Source: a virus
Lineage: Duplodnaviria; Heunggongvirae; Uroviricota; Caudoviricetes
Reading direction: 5' to 3' (one strand)
Virus record (IMG/VR): IMGVR_UViG_2693429555_000008
Length of the DNA: 8,796 nucleotides
Below are positions 681-8,640 of the stretch, piece by piece. The notes below the pieces were generated by a model. It saw only the letters and a list, made by a program, of their open reading frames with translations. It was not told the origin of the DNA and did not search any database. The position numbers and the translations under genes were made by a program. The first letter of the stretch is position 1; every line of letters starts with the position of its first letter.

Positions 681-836
681 TCACTCACCTGAGTTTCTTT
701 CCAGCCAGCGACGGGCACCATTTTCGGTTTTAAACGTTTTGCTTTTGGTATACGTCATCGCGGTGAACGTACCGTCCTGGTTGGGAAACACGCCGTACAC
801 CAGAGATTCGTTGTTGCCAAGATCGATAGTATCCAT
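681..836 (-). CDS. ydfA: Small prophage protein, 51 aa (DUF1391-like, YdfA/YdaF-like)
   Basis: Internal Met of track ORF 681..917; MDTIDLGNNESLVYGVFPNQDGTFTAMTYTKSKTFKTENGARRWLERNSGE. GAGG Shine-Dalgarno 5-8 nt upstream of ATG 836..834; the upstream in-frame extension has no ribosome-binding site. First gene of the leftward early operon. Confidence 0.6.
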   Translation of the reverse strand: MDTIDLGNNESLVYGVFPNQDGTFTAMTYTKSKTFKTENGARRWLERNSGE

Positions 837-1020
837 GTTGACCTCATTTCCCCTTAACGCCGGGGTAGCGGAACAAAAACCTGCTGCATAGTTATTAAAG
901 TTGAACCCTGCCGTCATGTTCTTACGCCTCGGGCTGGCTACTTAACCCCTGACCACTGCCTGGTAACTCGAAGTATTGCCCTGCATTCTGTGGGGTGGGG
1001 TGGGTTGGTATGAAAGGAAG

Positions 1021-1060
1021 GATACCCATGGGTATCCAAAAAGTAAATACCCATGGGTAA
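1021..1060. promoter_or_regulatory. OL-like operator pair: two copies of the 12-bp palindrome TACCCATGGGTA (1023..1034 and 1048..1059), centres 25 bp apart
   Basis: Perfect palindromes read directly; the first extends to the 16-bp GATACCCATGGGTATC. They sit between the repressor 3' end and the leftward small-gene operon and overlap a candidate leftward promoter (-35 TTTACT / -10 TATCCT on the minus strand). A T6 run at 1061..1066 follows the second copy on the plus strand, with a U-rich stretch after it on the minus strand, so a terminator role for the repressor transcript is also possible. Confidence 0.45.
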
Positions 1061-1101
1061 TTTTTTGATGTGTCTTAACTGGTGACTGGTTGTTTGGTGA
1101 G

Positions 1102-1521
1102 TTATGATGCGTTTTGTGCTTTCTTTTTACGGATTTCTTCGTAGATCATATTGTAATACTGTTTTTTCTCTTCAAGAGTTTTTAATAAGTTATCCGCTTC
1201 ACTTTCTGGCAGTTCGTCTAAGAGATCTAAAAAAATACGTTGTCGTGGCGTTAGAACCCTTGTTTCATAATTGGAGGCTGTGTTCGTTGATGATGAAACG
1301 ATACCATCCATCCATCCCCGGGGTAACCCAAAGGACTCTTCTATAATCTCCACCATATCATCAGCGATCCGTTTTTTTCCTTTTTTCCCCTCTGGGTACA
1401 ACATTCTTGATACATAAGAAGGCTCGCGACCGATCTTTCTGGCCACGTTAACCGCTTTACCATCGCATTTCTCATCACGAATTTTGATGAGTTGTTGTCG
1501 TCTAAATTCATATTTGTCCAT
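1102..1521 (-). CDS. Prophage repressor, XRE-type HTH, DicA/RacR-like, no peptidase domain (139 aa from first ATG)
   Basis: Track ORF 1102..1563 begins at a TTG; the first ATG is at 1521..1519 (MDKYEFRRQQLIKIRDEKCDGKAVNVARKIGREPSYVSRMLY...). HTH segment GKAVNVARKIGREPSYVSRM. C-terminal LTPRQRIFLDLLDELPESEADNLL resembles the DicA C-terminus as I recall it. Divergent from a Cro-like gene. No Shine-Dalgarno before the ATG and a TATTAT -10 (1533..1528) 6 nt upstream suggest a leaderless transcript. Confidence 0.75.
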   Translation of the reverse strand: MDKYEFRRQQLIKIRDEKCDGKAVNVARKIGREPSYVSRMLYPEGKKGKKRIADDMVEIIEESFGLPRGWMDGIVSSSTNTASNYETRVLTPRQRIFLDLLDELPESEADNLLKTLEEKKQYYNMIYEEIRKKKAQNAS

Positions 1522-1556
1522 AGGTAAATAATAGATGCGATTACCGCAAGGTAAAC

Positions 1557-1596
1557 AACCCAAGGGTATTGACTTTTGTTTACCTGTGGGTATTCT
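1557..1596 (+). promoter_or_regulatory. OR-like region: rightward promoter (-35 TTGACT 1569..1574, -10 TATTCT 1591..1596) overlapped by two operator half-palindromes (AACCCAAGGGTA 1557..1568; TACCTGTGGGTA 1581..1592)
   Basis: Hexamers with a 16-bp spacer, AAGGAG Shine-Dalgarno at 1611..1616 and ATG at 1622. Both sites match the TACCCATGGGTA palindrome at 10 of 12 positions and are 24 bp apart centre to centre, mirroring the OL-like pair. Confidence 0.45.
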
Positions 1597-1621: not shown

Positions 1622-1903
1622 ATGGAAGAATTAAGAATATTTCTCAATTCTCTTTCGTCAGATGAACAGCGTATGTTTGCATGTGAGTGTGGTACTAGCA
1701 TCGGTTATCTAAGAAAGGCATTGAGTAAAGGTCAAATGTTAGGGGCATCGTTATGTGTCCTTATTGAGCGAGCCAGTAATGGTGAAGTTACACGTCAGCA
1801 ACTAAGGCCTTTTGATTGGATGAATATTTGGCCCGAGCTGGAAGATACCAAAACGTTAACACAACCACTTACTAGGAGCTTGATTCATGAAAATCAAGCA
1901 TGA
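1622..1903 (+). CDS. ydaS: Cro-like HTH regulator, YdaS family (93 aa)
   Basis: First rightward gene, divergent from the repressor, with a strong AAGGAG Shine-Dalgarno. The C-terminal segment LIERASNGEVTRQQLRPFDW matches the E-R-A-x-x-G-x-V-x-R-x-x-L-R-P-x-x-W signature I associate with YdaS/Cro-like phage regulators. Its 3' end overlaps the next gene by 17 nt. Confidence 0.65.
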   Translation: MEELRIFLNSLSSDEQRMFACECGTSIGYLRKALSKGQMLGASLCVLIERASNGEVTRQQLRPFDWMNIWPELEDTKTLTQPLTRSLIHENQA

Positions 1904-2312
1904 ACACATCCGCATGGCGATGAATGCCTGGGCGCGTCCTGATGGCGAAAAAGTTCCAGCAGCTGGAATAACCCAGGCTTATTTTGAGTTGGGTATGACG
2001 TTTCCTGAACTGTATGACGACAGCCATCCGGAAGCCCTGGCTCGCAATACCCAGAAAATTTTCCGCTGGGTAGAGAAAGACACCCCTGATGCAGTTGAAA
2101 AAATTCAGGCGTTGTTACCAGCGATCGAAAAGGCAATGCCACCTTTGCTGGTGGCCAGAATGCGCAGCCACAGTTCAGCTTATTTTCGGGAGTTGGTGGA
2201 GACGCGGGAGCGACTGGTGAGAGACGCTGATGATTTTGTCGCAGTGGCAATCGCCGGTTTCAATCAGATGAACCGTGGTGGCCCGGCAGGAAATGCTGTG
2301 GCAGTACATTGA
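1887..2312 (+). CDS. ydaT: YdaT-like protein (CII-position regulator/toxin family), 141 aa
   Basis: ORF MKIKHEHIRMAMNAWARPDGEK...; AGGAG Shine-Dalgarno at 1873..1877. It sits immediately after the Cro-like gene, as in the racR-ydaS-ydaT module of the Rac prophage; the N-terminus and length (~140 aa) fit my recollection of YdaT. Confidence 0.65.
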   Translation: MKIKHEHIRMAMNAWARPDGEKVPAAGITQAYFELGMTFPELYDDSHPEALARNTQKIFRWVEKDTPDAVEKIQALLPAIEKAMPPLLVARMRSHSSAYFRELVETRERLVRDADDFVAVAIAGFNQMNRGGPAGNAVAVH

Positions 2313-3492: not shown

Positions 3493-3768
3493 GTGGCAAA
3501 AGTTTTTACTCCCGAACTGCGGGAAGAAGTGAAGGCGCGCATTGTGGAACTGGTACGCAGAGATGGGCGAAAAACGCGTAAACAACTGGAAAATGAAACC
3601 GGGGCGACGAGACACCTGATAGAAGTTCTGGTGAAAGAGCTGGTAGTTAGTGGCGCAGTATATGGTTCAGGACATGGAATATTTCCTTCGGAGCAGGCTC
3701 GTAAGGACTGGGGAAAAGCCCGCAAAAAAAATGTCGAGAGCGGCAGTGAAAAAGAAGAGCGACCCTGA
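3493..3768 (+). CDS. Hypothetical small basic protein with winged-helix-like segment (91 aa)
   Basis: GTG 3493 preceded by a strong AGGAGG Shine-Dalgarno (3483..3488), 37 nt after the initiator stop. RKTRKQLENETGATRHLIEVLVKELVVSG looks HTH-like. An A8 run (3724..3731) lies near the 3' end where an overlapping +1 ORF continues to 3901. Confidence 0.5.
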   Translation: MAKVFTPELREEVKARIVELVRRDGRKTRKQLENETGATRHLIEVLVKELVVSGAVYGSGHGIFPSEQARKDWGKARKKNVESGSEKEERP

Positions 3769-4045
3769 CCTGATTTATTCATTGCTAGATGGCGAAATAC
3801 GCCGTTACAACAGACGACAGAATATAATTTGTCGCGAGTGTCGTCAGAGCGAAGTTATGCAGCGCATACTGGAATTTTATCAGGGAAATGTTCGGTATTA
3901 ATTGAAGTGACGAAATTAAAGAGCATTAGTTCAGATATTAATTGACACTTCGATGGCACAGGCCCAGACCTAGTCTGGTTGTCAGCTTTGAGCTAGGTGA
4001 ACGTTGGTATCGTTAGTTTGTATTAATCAACGGAGAATAGGCCAA

Positions 4046-4144: not shown

Positions 4145-6943
4145 ATGTGGGGAAGTGAAAACAAACAAAATCTGGACGTACTGGATCCTGTGCAGTTGGT
4201 GCGTATCGAAGCGGTACACCGGGGGTTCCTTTACCAGCATCTTTACGCTGTAGGCTGCTTACTTTTGGCGCAGAGGGCAGCTATGGACTCAGTAACTGTC
4301 GAGCTTGATGAGGATATTGAGCTGAAATCCAAACAGGAACGTCTCTACATTCAGGTTAAAACCCGTTCAAAACCTATTATGCCCAACGATGTGTCGGGGG
4401 CTCTGGAGCGATTTGTAAAGCTCAGAAATGAGCATACTTCGGCAAACCGCGAAGGGGTGGCTTCTTTTGTGATTATTGTAAACCAGGCGCCTGGACCGCT
4501 GCTTCAGAAGATGATTGACGATAAAAAGCTTCCTTCTGATGTTCTTATTGTCTGGCCCCAGTCGACAGCTGGACGTCACCCGGCACTTCCGCCCGCATGG
4601 AGTACTCTGGCTGATGCGGCCACATGGTGTATCGCAGAAGCAGAAAAGCTGAAATTTTCACTATTGTCCCCAGAATCCTTGATTTGGAAGTTAGCAGGAT
4701 TGGTTCAGCTTGCCGCCACCGGAGGCGATACCAATGGACAACATACGTTTTTCACGGAAGAACTTACTGAACTATTTGAACAGTTGATCGTTCAGCTACA
4801 GGACTTTCCTGCACCACCAGCACTGTACCGCCCACAGAACGAAGAACCTTCTCTCACATCTGGTGAGCGGATCCGTATCCTTTGTGGACTCTCAGGTGCA
4901 GGCAAGACAGCTTGGGCCGCACAGGCCGCATTACACTCCACTGCACTTTGTGCTTATTACGACACCGGTGATCTTCCCGGTCCAGCTCTGGCCAGTACGC
5001 TGGTGCGCGAGATGGCTGCTAGATTTACAGCCCGTGACCAAGACGGTTTGCGCAGGATTTTGCTCCCCGGTGCCAGTGGTTTTGAGGCTCTTAGGAGTTT
5101 TGATACCTACCTGAAAGAGCAGGGTACCACCTTGGTGCTGGTTCTGGATAACGCCCATCGTGTACCTGCGGAAAATCTACTGGATGTTCTGAATGCAACT
5201 ACACATATTCGTTTTGTGCTGTTGTGCCAGCCTCACGAAAACGTTCGCGAACTGGAGGTCATGACGGGGCTACAGCGCGAGGGCCTGCAGGGATGGAATC
5301 TCGATACGGTAGCTGTCGTTGTAAACGATATCGGAGGATTTGCCACCGCTATGGGATACGAGCAGCTACGGGCTTACACTGGTGGTCTTCCCCTGTATGT
5401 AGAGAGCGCCGCAAAAATCGCCGTTTCTGATTATGAGCGTAATGTCGATGCTCTGTGTGCTGAACTCCAGCAACAAACCCATACTGCGGAAACCGCCCAA
5501 GAAATTATTCTGTCACGTGTATTTCAGGGATTTGAATCACTACTTCAGAGCGCGCTGGCATTGTTCAGTCTCTCTGACGTAGGGCTGAGTCGCGAAGAGA
5601 TTTCTACGCTCCTAATCAATTCGCTGAACATTTCACCAAGCAGTGCTGCTTCTTTAATTAGGAAAATGCGCGCTACTGGCACTATTGAAATTTATGGAAA
5701 CCAGACCCTGAAGGTACATGATGCTGTCAGGGGGCTAGGACTGCAACATCTGGAACTGATGGATCAGGGTATATCGAACAAAGCGCTACTAGCGCTGAAA
5801 GACCTTTTAGTTGAAAGTCTTCATAATACCCGCAATACAAAACGGTTATCGTTGTTGACTCAACTTTATATTAAGCTCAATGATGTCACGACGTTGATCG
5901 AACTCTCAGGCCAAGAAATGTTTTATGAGATGGGCGTGACGGTCGACATTCTTGCAAGCTTGGAGCGTGCTGCAACATCGGACTTATTGGGACCTGTTCA
6001 TAAATTCTGGGCATTGGATGGCCTTGTTTTCGTTGAGCTTAAAGACGGAATATCCGACCACATTGCTCAGAGGTTAAACATCATGGGAGCTTTACTTGCG
6101 GAGCACAAGTTCGGCTATCAAGAAGAGATGGCCTATGCAATGAAACGAATGTTATTTTCGGCAGAAAGCAATGATGCACGAGAAGTTCAAAAGCTGGCAC
6201 AGGAAGTCCGCCCCCAACTCCCAGATGAAGAACATAAACGCATCTTTGACTACAACCATGCCATTGCACTCTGGAGATTAAAAAAACTCAAGGATGCTGA
6301 AACATTAAGCTGTAATGTTATACAAGGGTACTATTCTTTATTTGGTATCACACCTGCTGATGTCATAGGAAAAAACGCCGACGCATTATGGAAAACTATT
6401 AATCATTCCGAAAATATGCAGGAACACTTTAAACATATGGCTGATGCTCTGGAGTTGCTGGCCAGAATTCGTGATGCGCAGGGAAAACTGTCACCATTAC
6501 TGCGTATTCATTCGATGAAGTTCTACAATCTGGCCATGGCCCCGGAATCCATGGTCAGGGTGGGCCAAGATCTGGCGGATGAGTTTGTTGCCATAAAGGA
6601 TTACGACGGTGCCAAGGAAGTCATGGAGCAACATGTCCTGCCGGTTGTCAATGAGGCAGGTCTAGTACATCGACTGATTCAGGTTCGAAGCCAATACGCA
6701 GTCATATTAGCACTATCGGGTCAGCATAAAGCAGCTGATGTCGAAATGCAGCGCCTTGCTCCCTATATCGAAGGCCTCACAGGTGTACAGCGTCAAGAAA
6801 TCCAAAATCAATCAAATTACATCGTACAGCTTGCCCATAAAGCAGCAAAGACTAAATTAACTGAAGTTTTTGGTGCGGTCGGCCGGAATGAACAATGCCC
6901 CTGTGGCTCGGGAATAAAGTACAAAAAATGTCACGGTGCCTGA
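4145..6943 (+). CDS. STAND/NB-ARC-like P-loop NTPase, 932 aa, with nuclease-like N-terminal domain, helical C-terminal region and terminal SEC-C zinc motif; candidate anti-phage defence protein
   Basis: Uninterrupted 2.8-kb ORF with its own Shine-Dalgarno. Walker A GLSGAGKT (4886..4909); Walker B-like LVLVLDNAH (5132..5158); HIRFVLLCQPHE resembling an NB-ARC RNBS-B/TTR motif; GGLPLYV resembling the GLPL motif (5381..5398); C-terminal CPCGSGIKYKKCHG (6896..6937) matching the SEC-C metal-binding motif. N-terminal GFLYQHLY and D/E-rich strand followed by QVK are compatible with a PD-(D/E)xK fold. GC content looks lower than in the flanking phage genes. Confidence 0.9.
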   Translation: MWGSENKQNLDVLDPVQLVRIEAVHRGFLYQHLYAVGCLLLAQRAAMDSVTVELDEDIELKSKQERLYIQVKTRSKPIMPNDVSGALERFVKLRNEHTSANREGVASFVIIVNQAPGPLLQKMIDDKKLPSDVLIVWPQSTAGRHPALPPAWSTLADAATWCIAEAEKLKFSLLSPESLIWKLAGLVQLAATGGDTNGQHTFFTEELTELFEQLIVQLQDFPAPPALYRPQNEEPSLTSGERIRILCGLSGAGKTAWAAQAALHSTALCAYYDTGDLPGPALASTLVREMAARFTARDQDGLRRILLPGASGFEALRSFDTYLKEQGTTLVLVLDNAHRVPAENLLDVLNATTHIRFVLLCQPHENVRELEVMTGLQREGLQGWNLDTVAVVVNDIGGFATAMGYEQLRAYTGGLPLYVESAAKIAVSDYERNVDALCAELQQQTHTAETAQEIILSRVFQGFESLLQSALALFSLSDVGLSREEISTLLINSLNISPSSAASLIRKMRATGTIEIYGNQTLKVHDAVRGLGLQHLELMDQGISNKALLALKDLLVESLHNTRNTKRLSLLTQLYIKLNDVTTLIELSGQEMFYEMGVTVDILASLERAATSDLLGPVHKFWALDGLVFVELKDGISDHIAQRLNIMGALLAEHKFGYQEEMAYAMKRMLFSAESNDAREVQKLAQEVRPQLPDEEHKRIFDYNHAIALWRLKKLKDAETLSCNVIQGYYSLFGITPADVIGKNADALWKTINHSENMQEHFKHMADALELLARIRDAQGKLSPLLRIHSMKFYNLAMAPESMVRVGQDLADEFVAIKDYDGAKEVMEQHVLPVVNEAGLVHRLIQVRSQYAVILALSGQHKAADVEMQRLAPYIEGLTGVQRQEIQNQSNYIVQLAHKAAKTKLTEVFGAVGRNEQCPCGSGIKYKKCHGA

Positions 6944-7045: not shown

Positions 7046-7098
7046 GGCTGCGGGTGCTTGAGGCTATCTGTCTCAGGCATGAACACCAAAGGCAGATA

Positions 7099-7172
7099 GA
7101 GAAAAGCCCCAGTTAACATTACGCGTCCTGCAAGACGCTTAACATTAATCTGAGGCTCAATCTATGAACGGC
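7099..7172 (-). ncRNA. sok: Candidate Sok-like antisense RNA
   Basis: Minus-strand promoter -35 TTGCCT (rc of 7202..7207) and -10 TAACCT (rc of 7179..7184), 17-bp spacer, start near 7172. The transcript would be complementary to the mok Shine-Dalgarno and start codon (7152..7166), contain hairpin GCGTC-CTGCAA-GACGC (7123..7138) and end in a U-rich tract (rc of 7099..7105). Boundaries are approximate. Confidence 0.35.
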
Positions 7173-7376
7173 AAATCTAGGTTAGCCTCTTACGTGCCGA
7201 AAGGCAAGGAGAAGCAGGCTATGAAGCAGCAAAAGGCGATGTTAATCGTCCTGATCGTCATCTGTTTAACCGTCATAGTGACGGCACTGGTAACGAGGAA
7301 AGACCTCTGCGAGGTACGAATCCGAACCGGCCAGACGGAGGTCGCTGTCTTCACAGCTTACGAACCTGAGGAGTAA
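7164..7376 (+). CDS. mok: Mok-like reading frame (70 aa), an in-frame N-terminal extension of hok
   Basis: ATG 7164 with GAGG Shine-Dalgarno 8 nt upstream; in frame with hok and sharing its stop, as I recall for chromosomal mokC/hokC. Its start region is the predicted Sok target. Confidence 0.5.
   Translation: MNGKSRLASYVPKGKEKQAMKQQKAMLIVLIVICLTVIVTALVTRKDLCEVRIRTGQTEVAVFTAYEPEE
7221..7376 (+). CDS. hok: Hok/Gef-family type I toxin (51 aa membrane peptide), HokD/RelF-like
   Basis: Translation MKQQKAMLIVLIVICLTVIVTALVTRKDLCEVRIRTGQTEVAVFTAYEPEE is nearly identical to the E. coli HokD/RelF sequence as I recall it; hydrophobic transmembrane helix followed by the conserved RKDLCEV...GQTEVAVF core. 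Confidence 0.9.
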   Translation: MKQQKAMLIVLIVICLTVIVTALVTRKDLCEVRIRTGQTEVAVFTAYEPEE

Positions 7377-7471: not shown

Positions 7472-7543
7472 CCTGGCATTCTGGTTTACAATTCGCACGC
7501 CAGCCTGAACAACTGGCACCTGCTGCGCCAGCAGAGACAACCG

Positions 7544-7822
7544 ATGGCGCACGATACCAAATTACACAATTCTAATGATTCTGCTGTCTTTGCCAGCAGG
7601 TGCGGACGGCGTTTTCACGCATTCACATCAGACTGGTTCCAGCATCCTCCATGCACTGAAGAGCAGGCTGAATGGATAATTCAGTGTTACCGCAGGCGTG
7701 GATACGAGGTTAAGAAAGCTCTTAGTCTCGACTATCGTCACTGGATAATCTCAGTCAGACTCCCTTACTCCGAACGCCCACCGCGTCCGTCCCGCACATT
7801 CCAGCAACGCATCTGGAGGTAA
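7544..7822 (+). CDS. Hypothetical 92-aa protein, paralog copy 1 (Cys/His/Arg/Trp-rich; Rem-like position after hok)
   Basis: Track ORF 7415..7822 contains the hok terminator, so the start is placed at ATG 7544 (MAHDTKLHNSND...WFQHPPCTEEQAEWIIQCYRRRGYEV...). Near-identical to the 8145..8423 product over the C-terminal ~65 residues. In the Qin prophage hokD is followed by rem then ydfU; assignment is by synteny only. Confidence 0.55.
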   Translation: MAHDTKLHNSNDSAVFASRCGRRFHAFTSDWFQHPPCTEEQAEWIIQCYRRRGYEVKKALSLDYRHWIISVRLPYSERPPRPSRTFQQRIWR

Positions 7823-8039
7823 CGTGCGGGTATTACTTCGACCTGTTCTGGTACCGGAACTCGGGCTGGTGATCGTTAAGCCGGGCCGTGAATCCATGCC
7901 GGTATTCCACAATACCCGGGTACTGGTGGAGCCGGAACCGAAAAGCATGCGTAATCTGCCGTCCGGGGTCGTTCCTGCCGTTCGCCAGCCGCTGGTGGAA
8001 GACAAAACATTGCTGCCGTTTTTCAGTAACGCACGGGTA
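7616..8039. repeat. Tandem direct repeat, unit A (424 bp, ~95% identical to unit B)
   Basis: Base-by-base comparison with 8217..8640, offset exactly 601 bp, with a handful of substitutions. Confidence 0.85.
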
Positions 8040-8078
8040 GGAATAAAAGCAGGCTTTTCAGCTTTTGCAGAAGAATAA
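7824..8078 (+). pseudogene. Truncated copy of the downstream Cys/His-rich gene (DUF968/YdfU-like?), 84 codons
   Basis: GTG 7824 two nt after the upstream stop, with GGAGG Shine-Dalgarno. The first ~72 codons (MRVLLRPVLVPELG...FFSNARV) are near-identical to the 8425 gene; the sequence then diverges at 8040 and terminates (…GIKAGFSAFAEE), at the end of duplicated unit A. Confidence 0.5.
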
Positions 8079-8144
8079 ACTCATCTACAATCTTGCGCGG
8101 GGCTGAACTCCCGCTGAGTAACACCGTGCCACCGGAGAAAACCG

Positions 8145-8423
8145 ATGGCACGCAACGTAAAATATTACAATTCTGATAATTCGCCCGTTCTTGCCTGCAC
8201 GCACGAGCGGTATTCTCACGCATTCAAGTCTGAATGGTTCCAGCACCCTCCATGCACTGAAGAGCAGGCGGAATGGATAATTCAGTGTTACCGCAGGCGC
8301 GGATACGAGGTTAAGAAAGCTCTTAGTCTCGACTACCGTCACTGGATAATCTCAGTCAGATTGCCTAACTCCGAACGCCCACCGCGTCCGTCCCGTACAT
8401 TCCAGCAACGCATCTGGAGGTAA
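8145..8423 (+). CDS. Hypothetical 92-aa protein, paralog copy 2
   Basis: ATG 8145 with GGAGA Shine-Dalgarno (8134..8138); MARNVKYYNSDNSPVLACTHERYSHAFKSEWFQHPPCTEEQ.... The N-terminal ~25 residues differ from copy 1; the rest is near-identical. Confidence 0.6.
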   Translation: MARNVKYYNSDNSPVLACTHERYSHAFKSEWFQHPPCTEEQAEWIIQCYRRRGYEVKKALSLDYRHWIISVRLPNSERPPRPSRTFQQRIWR

Positions 8424-8640
8424 CGTGCGGGTATTACTTCGACCTGTTCTGGTACCGGAACTCGGGATGGTGGTCGTTAAGCCGGGCCGTGAATCCATGC
8501 CGGTATTCCACAATACCCGGGTACTGGTGGAGCCGGAACCGAAAAGCATGCGTAATCTGCCGTCCGGGGTCGTTCCTGCCGTTCGCCAGCCGCTGGTGGA
8601 AGACAAAACATTGCTGCCGTTTTTCAGTAACGCACGGGTA
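8217..8640. repeat. Tandem direct repeat, unit B
   Basis: See unit A. Confidence 0.85.

Follow-up and report, generated by a model that had tools for sequence, protein, structure and literature searches.

Five palindromes as predicted operators of a lambda-like repressor switch governing the dicB operon of an Escherichia coli prophage

In the Qin prophage of Escherichia coli K-12, DicA represses dicBp via operators at both dicCp and dicBp (PMC10448788), and in CP-933P the repressor PaaR2 and YdaS regulate the promoters PR/PRM as well as PL, the latter with left operator (OL) sites (PMC8630535). CP-933P operators contain GTTTAGTAA half-sites (PMC8630535), the operator of RacR reads TAGGC-n3-GCCTA (PMC9638921), and for 933W five natural operator sites in total were reported across the right operator (OR) and OL (PMC3317979). 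The mRNAs of lambda cI and PaaR2 have been described as leaderless (PMC8630535). The present study deals with 8,796 nucleotides of an E. coli lambdoid prophage (IMG/VR record IMGVR_UViG_2693429555_000008), hereafter called the window, to which all coordinates refer. Five palindromes lying on both sides of the gene of a 139-aa repressor (1102-1521, minus strand; WP_000362152.1) are interpreted here as the operators of this repressor, which in a lambda-like manner would silence the leftward dicB operon as well as the lytic genes. Judged from the sequence and its comparison with related loci, a probability of about 0.88 is assigned to this reading.

The initial annotation had described two perfect copies of TACCCATGGGTA at 1023-1034 and 1048-1059 and two 10/12 variants of it at 1557-1568 (AACCCAAGGGTA) and 1581-1592 (TACCTGTGGGTA), each pair being spaced by 24-25 bp. 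Coordinates and sequences proved exact, and the distance from start to start amounts to 25 bp on the left and 24 bp on the right. The left-hand copies are named OL1 (1023-1034), which forms the core of a perfect 16-bp palindrome, GATACCCATGGGTATC, and OL2 (1048-1059), the right-hand variants OR2 (1557-1568) and OR1 (1581-1592). An additional right-hand site, OR3 (TACCGCAAGGTA, 1542-1553), had been missed, so that of the lambda-like OL/OR arrangement suggested earlier the occurrence of the same sites over promoters on both sides of the repressor gene stands, whereas the right operator has to be corrected from two sites to three. OL comprises two sites, and three sites per operator, as known from lambdoid phages, were found neither here nor in 30 homologous loci; in the window and in the alignment of these 30 loci no third OL site was seen, the region upstream of OL2 being merely A-rich. 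The sites are in clear excess over chance. With up to two mismatches, TACCCATGGGTA occurs four times in the window against 0.20 expected, a number reached in none of 200 shuffles, and the looser core TACC-N4-GGTA, which includes OR3, has four perfect matches against 0.08 expected. A motif search across the whole prophage (49.9 kb, locus L047), as proposed in the initial annotation, returned just these four perfect matches (0.28 expected) and no further one. Operators of the RacR type (TAGGC-n3-GCCTA) or the PaaR2 type (GTTTAGTAA half-sites) were considered as candidates and are present neither in 1520-1600 nor in 1015-1065.

All five sites lie on or next to promoter-like hexamers. The right-hand sites overlap two divergent promoters listed by the promoter scan, namely the sigma-70-like rightward promoter PR (1569-1596, plus strand; -35 TTGACT at 1569-1574, 16-bp spacer, -10 TATTCT at 1591-1596), whose overlap with these sites had been recognized before and which has a ydaS-like cro and ydaT downstream, and PRM in front of the repressor gene (1555-1528, minus strand; -35 TTTACC at 1555-1550, 16-bp spacer, -10 TATTAT at 1533-1528). 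OR1 is situated within the PR spacer and reaches into the -10 of PR, OR2 is found between the -35 elements of PR and PRM and abuts that of PR, its centre being located 41.5 bp upstream of where PRM is predicted to start, and OR3 overlaps the -35 of PRM. The left-hand sites overlap a predicted promoter leading away from the repressor gene, PL, the equivalent of dicBp (1047-1019, minus strand), which was read from the sequence with a -35 TTTACT at 1047-1042, a 17-bp spacer and a -10 TATCCT at 1024-1019 and is predicted to start near 1011-1012. OL2 directly abuts its -35, and OL1 occupies the spacer and extends into the -10. On the minus strand, PL has the form TACCCATGGGTA-TTTACT-TTTTGGA-TACCCATGGGTA-TCCT, PR the form AACCCAAGGGTA-TTGACT-TTTGTT-TACCTGTGGGTA-TTCT; the two promoters share one layout, in which an outer site (O2) is followed by the -35, 6-7 bp and an inner site (O1) extending into the -10. 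Since the -10 of PRM ends 6 nt ahead of the repressor ATG, whose A (1521) is the predicted start, and a Shine-Dalgarno sequence is missing, the repressor mRNA is predicted to be leaderless.

The same sites accompany the same DNA-binding domain in many other genomes. A scan of one genome per species yielded 41 loci (42 when the window is counted) with an N-terminal domain 35-82% identical to that of the window repressor; they were found in Yersinia, Edwardsiella, Klebsiella, Pantoea, Aeromonas, Neisseria, Paraburkholderia, Xanthomonas and others and thus span several orders of Gamma- and Betaproteobacteria, Enterobacterales and Burkholderiales among them, some of the contigs ending too early to judge the presence of operators. 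In the 330 kb of the window and the 41 loci together, 121 perfect TACC-N4-GGTA sites were counted, where about five would be expected by a rough calculation with uniform base composition; 61 of them are located near the offsets -73, -48 and -33 relative to the ATG of the repressor gene, 53 belong to downstream pairs 25-26 bp apart, and seven lie elsewhere. OR1 was recovered in 36 of the 42 loci at -73 from the ATG, OR3 in 33 at -33, and OR2 likewise in 33, with one half-site weakened family-wide and positions 11-12 variable, while the OL pair was present in 30. The aligned sites have invariant TACC/GGTA arms and a preference for Y-R-Y-R in the centre, and the predicted family operator consensus is T-TACC-YRYR-GGTA-A (TTACC-YRYR-GGTAA). 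The promoter elements follow the same pattern: OL2 is succeeded by TTGA(C) (T in 30/30, T in 26/30, G in 23/30 and A in 24/30), and the GG-TA of OL1 extends into a TAnnnT hexamer with an invariant final T (30/30), elements that can be read as the conserved putative -35 and -10 of PL. A TAnnnT hexamer precedes the repressor ATG by 6-7 nt in 20 of the 42 loci and by 5 nt in one more, looser nAnAAT hexamers are found there in most of the remaining loci, and a Shine-Dalgarno-like sequence is missing in 35 of the 42; a leaderless repressor mRNA hence seems to be conserved across the family. Homologues of the window cro run divergently from the repressor gene in 32 of the 41 loci.

Three phages fit into this scheme. 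In mEp043, whose N-terminal domain is 76% identical and which possesses a homologous, divergent cro, the operators are arranged three plus two as in the window; the cI-cro intergenic region reads TACCTGCCGGTA-aat-AACCTATGGGTA-TTGATT-6 bp-TACCTACAGGTA, and the annotated putative PL carries TACCTACAGGTA and TACCTATAGGTA. CharmingMan and Mannheimia 587AP2, with a domain 45% identical, display the 3+2 pattern and possess a homologous cro, too. Absence of the sites from regions sharing the repressor had been named in the initial annotation as an argument against the operators, yet most of the 41 loci and all three phages carry them. Five Klebsiella loci (L008, L009, L011-L013) have the domain, the upstream sites and in most cases the downstream pair, but no cro homologue, which argues that the sites belong to the repressor rather than to Cro. 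In these five loci the domain is part of a 242-aa S24 protein, and the two upstream sites are 40 bp apart with OR2 missing; here the repressor may be used in a simplified manner or outside a prophage. Variant sites with longer spacing were observed as well: near PL of mEp043 (L004, 1643-1664) a TACC-N14-GGTA occurs, its arms about one helical turn further apart, and the two most distant loci, from Advenella (L041 and L045, 35-38% identity), have ATACCG-N10-CGGTAT at -60 to -35 and no standard sites. Possibly, binding takes another mode in these cases, or the specificity has diverged.

The repressor itself matches PHROG 5736 ('transcriptional regulator'). In the AlphaFold model, residues 1-72 form a helical N-terminal domain (predicted local distance difference test, pLDDT, >90) with a helix-turn-helix at 23-40, followed by a disordered linker (residues 77-87) and a C-terminal helical hairpin (89-138). 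Across 23 homologues no Pfam family matched even at E up to 1, apart from the S24 domain of the long forms, and sequence searches against solved structures gave chance-level matches only (e.g., the ADAR Z-alpha domain, E 0.08). With Foldseek against PDB, generic Xre-type repressors were matched weakly, most closely 5d50, the antirepressor-controlled Rep of a Salmonella phage (E 6e-4, template modelling score 0.44), which on the basis of the model suffices to speak of a helix-turn-helix repressor fold but is too weak for an assignment to a family. Residues 1-75 show 50-85% identity with the N-termini of numerous S24/LexA-type CI proteins of 220-240 aa from Salmonella, Edwardsiella, Klebsiella, Pantoea and others, and the recognition-helix region REPSYVSRMLY is near-invariant among homologues, in keeping with the invariant operator half-sites. 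The C-terminal part has another affinity. The DicA profile NCBIfam NF007257 matches residues 84-136 (E 2.5e-5, 24 bits against a cut-off of 101), and BLASTP aligned DicA with residues 89-134 only (33% identity over 46 aa, E 1e-7). An orthologue of DicA, as which it was also considered, the protein is not, since the match is confined to the C-terminal part and the DNA-binding domain is unrelated. By its sequence the repressor is a chimera of a widespread, uncatalogued DNA-binding domain and a DicA-type tail. As it possesses no S24 domain, RecA-driven self-cleavage would not be expected.

The operon downstream of PL consists of ydfA (DUF1391; 836-681), ydfB (679-551) and ydfC (521-303), all on the minus strand, and just left of the window DicF (Rfam, 76.7 bits; 8060-8111 in locus L001) and dicB adjoin ydfC. 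Because DicF and dicB follow ydfC, the leftward small-gene operon is a true dicBF operon; its identity is based on the RefSeq annotation of L001, a 100% identical locus, on the Rfam match to DicF and on DUF1391, and the gene order ydfA-ydfB-ydfC-dicF-dicB is the same in K-12 Qin. The resemblance to the DicA-controlled dicB operon noted in the initial annotation has thereby become closer, as the operon is a genuine one and the repressor shares a homologous C-terminus with DicA. Ahead of ydfA, the predicted PL transcript contains a leader of ~175 nt (836-1011, minus strand) that begins with a C-rich run, ACCAACCCACCCCACCCCACAG, and contains an upstream in-frame ATG at 917, from which certain records annotate a 78-aa YdfA. 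This leader is mostly missing from K-12 Qin and is kept in Tritos and 666R9.

Tritos and 666R9 are also informative with regard to the specificity of the sites. Their repressors, likewise of 139 aa, share the C-terminal ~50 residues with the window repressor but not the N-terminal domain, which is unrelated (overall identity 37%). Tritos has the ydfABC-dicF-dicB operon as in the window and a ydaT 98% identical, 666R9 a Rac-type left arm (kil, sieB) and a distant ydaT (31%), and neither possesses a related cro. DNA homology of the window with both reaches to ~1008, just past the predicted PL start, and on the repressor side picks up again within the C-terminal half of the repressor gene. No TACC-N4-GGTA was detected in the equivalent regions of Tritos and 666R9; in Tritos all five equivalent positions hold ATGTACT-N5-GTTCA with 24-bp spacing, and a promoter was listed by the scan at the aligned PL position. 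The sites are therefore present together with the domain and replaced at both operators where the domain is replaced, as is typical of immunity specificity. Because the motif leaves with the domain, OL, the DNA-binding domain, OR and cro are understood as one exchangeable unit, within which the conserved C-terminal coding segment sits between OL and the DNA-binding domain.

From this arrangement the following switch can be proposed. Dimers of the 139-aa repressor would bind to each site via the N-terminal helix-turn-helix, and the spacing of 24-25 bp within the pairs would suit cooperation of adjacent dimers. Occupation of OL1, over the spacer and the -10, and of OL2, abutting the -35, would exclude RNA polymerase from PL and thus silence ydfA-ydfB-ydfC-dicF-dicB plus the genes beyond. 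On the other side, OR1 on the spacer and -10 of PR and OR2 upstream of its -35 would silence the lytic operon of the ydaS-like cro and ydaT. At 41.5 bp upstream of the PRM start, OR2 would occupy a position like that from which lambda CI activates its own promoter, and OR3 over the PRM -35 would shut PRM at high repressor levels. Looping between OL and OR over ~530 bp may contribute, and the YdaS-type Cro probably competes for the same sites.

Several points weigh against this proposal. No more than 3 bp separate the cores of OR2 and OR3 (centre-to-centre distance 15 bp), a tighter spacing than in lambda, so that simultaneous occupancy of both may fail. PL agrees with the sigma-70 consensus in 8 of 12 positions and is unlisted by the automatic scan, its score lying under the threshold. 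Binding by the repressor is deduced from sequence and comparison, and in most loci repressor and cro co-occur, so that most of the evidence cannot separate the two proteins. Lastly, the identical OL palindromes can form a 16-bp RNA hairpin (-24.2 kcal/mol, z = -4.6).

This hairpin leads to the explanation which survives best besides the operators, although it must be called improbable: the left pair (1023-1059) might mainly be the intrinsic terminator of the repressor gene, keeping PRM transcripts from the toxic dicB operon, and its likeness to the right-hand sites would then be of secondary importance. The terminator scan flags 1059-1023 (minus strand) with a 16-bp stem followed by TCCTTCCTTT, in the 42 bp from the stop codon (1102) to OL2 no other terminator-like hairpin was seen, and Tritos and 666R9 have an extra segment of ~40 bp in their stop-to-OL2 region that is missing from the window. 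However, the tail of the hairpin, UCCUUCCUUU, is a poor U-tract, and comparison of 30 homologous pairs gave no excess complementarity of the central 4 bp, the mean number of mismatches being 2.63 against 2.54 in permuted pairings, by which termination as the conserved role of the left pair is ruled out. Site pairs are often direct copies (TATG/TATG in L005, TACA/TACA in L028), the hairpins predicted in other loci are weak (-5 to -16 kcal/mol), and in many loci the downstream pair is found 1-4 kb past the repressor gene, beyond other genes. What is conserved are the half-sites with the -35/-10 hexamers and not the hairpin. That in this prophage alone the OL palindromes double as a terminator insulating the repressor transcript is a more lenient version, which we consider possible, if rather doubtful.

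Less probable still is that the 139-aa repressor does not bind the sites and that only the Cro-like YdaS or some other factor of the module does. In 32 of 41 loci and in mEp043 the sites are indeed found alongside cro homologues, which in Tritos have been exchanged together with the motif, and the YdaS of CP-933P footprints the same intergenic region as PaaR2 (PMC8630535); the five Klebsiella loci mentioned above, however, keep repressor domain and sites without a cro homologue, a PL operator not bound by the repressor would leave dicB unrepressed in the lysogen, and in studied lambdoid switches both proteins always share their sites (PMC8630535, PMC10448788). That chance palindromes or restriction-site-like sequences without regulatory role (CCATGG is an NcoI site) are involved is effectively refuted: short palindromes do arise by chance and the two left copies could stem from a local duplication, but none of the 200 shuffles reached the observed count, in homologues the central CATG is unconserved while the TACC/GGTA arms are invariant, and the sites keep constant distances from the ATG and the promoter hexamers over several orders of Gamma- and Betaproteobacteria.

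The operators thus remain the preferred interpretation. The stretch 850-1700 is 100% identical to an E. coli chromosome, and at least 80% of its 851 bp was matched in ~820 of 5,426 complete E. coli genomes. The lambdoid prophage adjoins a tRNA-Ser gene and comprises tail, head, lysis and Q genes as well as type III effector cargo. Downstream of PR, the YdaS-type Cro analogue (1622-1903, plus strand, 93 aa) is followed by a YdaT-type cII analogue (1887-2312, plus strand). At the end of ydaS and the start of ydaT, TTGATTCATGAAAATCAA (1880-1897) represents a perfect TTGATT-N6-AATCAA, the inverted repeat of YdaT, which was footprinted for YdaT in CP-933P at the ydaS/ydaT junction, too (PMC9986795). 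With up to two mismatches 0.61 matches would be expected by chance, and a perfect 12-of-12 match is rare; the site is probably that of a PRE-type establishment promoter. Further downstream, a DUF977 gene (3493-3901, plus strand) is split into two overlapping open reading frames (ORFs) and frameshifted according to the annotation of the identical genome, a sign of prophage decay. A 932-aa protein (4145-6943, plus strand) with an N-terminal part of the Cap4 nuclease type, an AAA ATPase region and, at its C-terminus, a SEC-C motif has a weak PADLOC match to LmuA of Lamassu (E 5e-7, N-terminal ~100 residues only). Its gene is a candidate for anti-phage defence carried by the prophage and lies between the replication genes and hok/sok. 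The latter, a type I toxin-antitoxin locus (7052-7376, plus strand), includes a sok RNA (110 bits), the only Rfam match within the window, and a Hok-family ORF at 7164-7376, annotated as hokD in the identical genome. Finally, a block of 300 nt occurs twice (7527-7826 and 8128-8427), 601 bp apart and with 86% identity, and duplicates an ORF ending in ...EWIIQCYRRRGYEVKKALSLDYRHWIISVRLP.SERPPRPSRTFQQRIWR; as a single such ORF is annotated in L001, the window may differ here from the L001 strain.

In the literature, with most subscription journals outside the search, no description of TACC-N4-GGTA operators or of the mEp043 switch was found, and the exact strings of the operator variants, tried as a route to published operators, met unrelated primer sequences only. 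The architecture as such is textbook, and the gain consists of annotation and a useful model system rather than a new principle. A repressor annotated merely as 'hypothetical protein' is now provided with a precise predicted map of operators and promoters, the joint replacement of left operator, DNA-binding domain, right operator and cro offers a clean example of modular exchange, and for the DNA-binding domain, which has no family in Pfam, the 41 loci and three phages could serve as the seed of a model. TACC-N4-GGTA half-sites, the 3+2 layout and the promoter geometry persist even at ~45% protein identity, from E. coli to Xanthomonas, Neisseria and Paraburkholderia. It is a tentative thought, with the odds somewhat against it, that the N-terminal domain (MDKYE...REPSYVSRMLY...LPRGWMDG) defines one very large uncharacterised immunity group of fixed DNA specificity. 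Such constancy would be out of the ordinary, as the immunity specificities of phages usually diverge quickly. The domain would have recombined freely with S24 self-cleaving or DicA-type helical-hairpin C-termini, the latter presumably in need of an antirepressor, and wide cross-immunity among otherwise unrelated prophages would be predicted.

The switch follows the logic of the lambda OL/OR, of which DicA/DicC/dicBp of Qin, PaaR2/YdaS/YdaT of CP-933P and RacR of Rac are versions with a short repressor. Among the known systems, the phages with the same domain differ in their CI proteins, those of mEp043, CharmingMan and 587AP2 being ~228 aa long with an S24/LexA-type C-terminal domain, and in mEp043 PL drives the N antiterminator gene. 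In 933W the five sites are split three plus two, which matches the 3+2 arrangement found here, whereas its repressor is of the S24 type, its operator sequence is another one and binding is reportedly not cooperative. CP-933P (PaaR2) and Rac (RacR), compared by gene order and operators, resemble the window in a repressor gene divergent from ydaS-ydaT, and CP-933P also in the perfect TTGATT-N6-AATCAA site at the ydaS/ydaT junction; unlike both, the window has no toxin-antitoxin pair downstream of the repressor gene. With the DicA/DicC/dicBp system of Qin the window shares the operon, a short repressor without cleavage domain and a homologous C-terminal domain of this repressor. The N-terminal DNA-binding domains are unrelated, however, and the cro of the window is of the YdaS type, that of Qin being DicC; the Qin intergenic regions, as read from the sequence, contain TGTTAG/CTAACA-type repeats and no TACC-N4-GGTA, and of the Qin dicA-ydfA spacer only about the last 50 nt are common to the window. 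From lambda the window differs in operator sequence and helix-turn-helix domain, in an OL of two sites and in OR2-OR3 cores 3 bp apart, in a repressor without S24 domain and in a PL that heads the dicB operon, where the lambda PL heads N. Nevertheless, both have palindromic operators on both sides of the repressor gene, pairs of sites ~24 bp apart, three sites spanning PR/PRM and a leaderless repressor mRNA (predicted here), and in lambda OR2 is located ~42 bp upstream of the PRM start, as predicted for the window.

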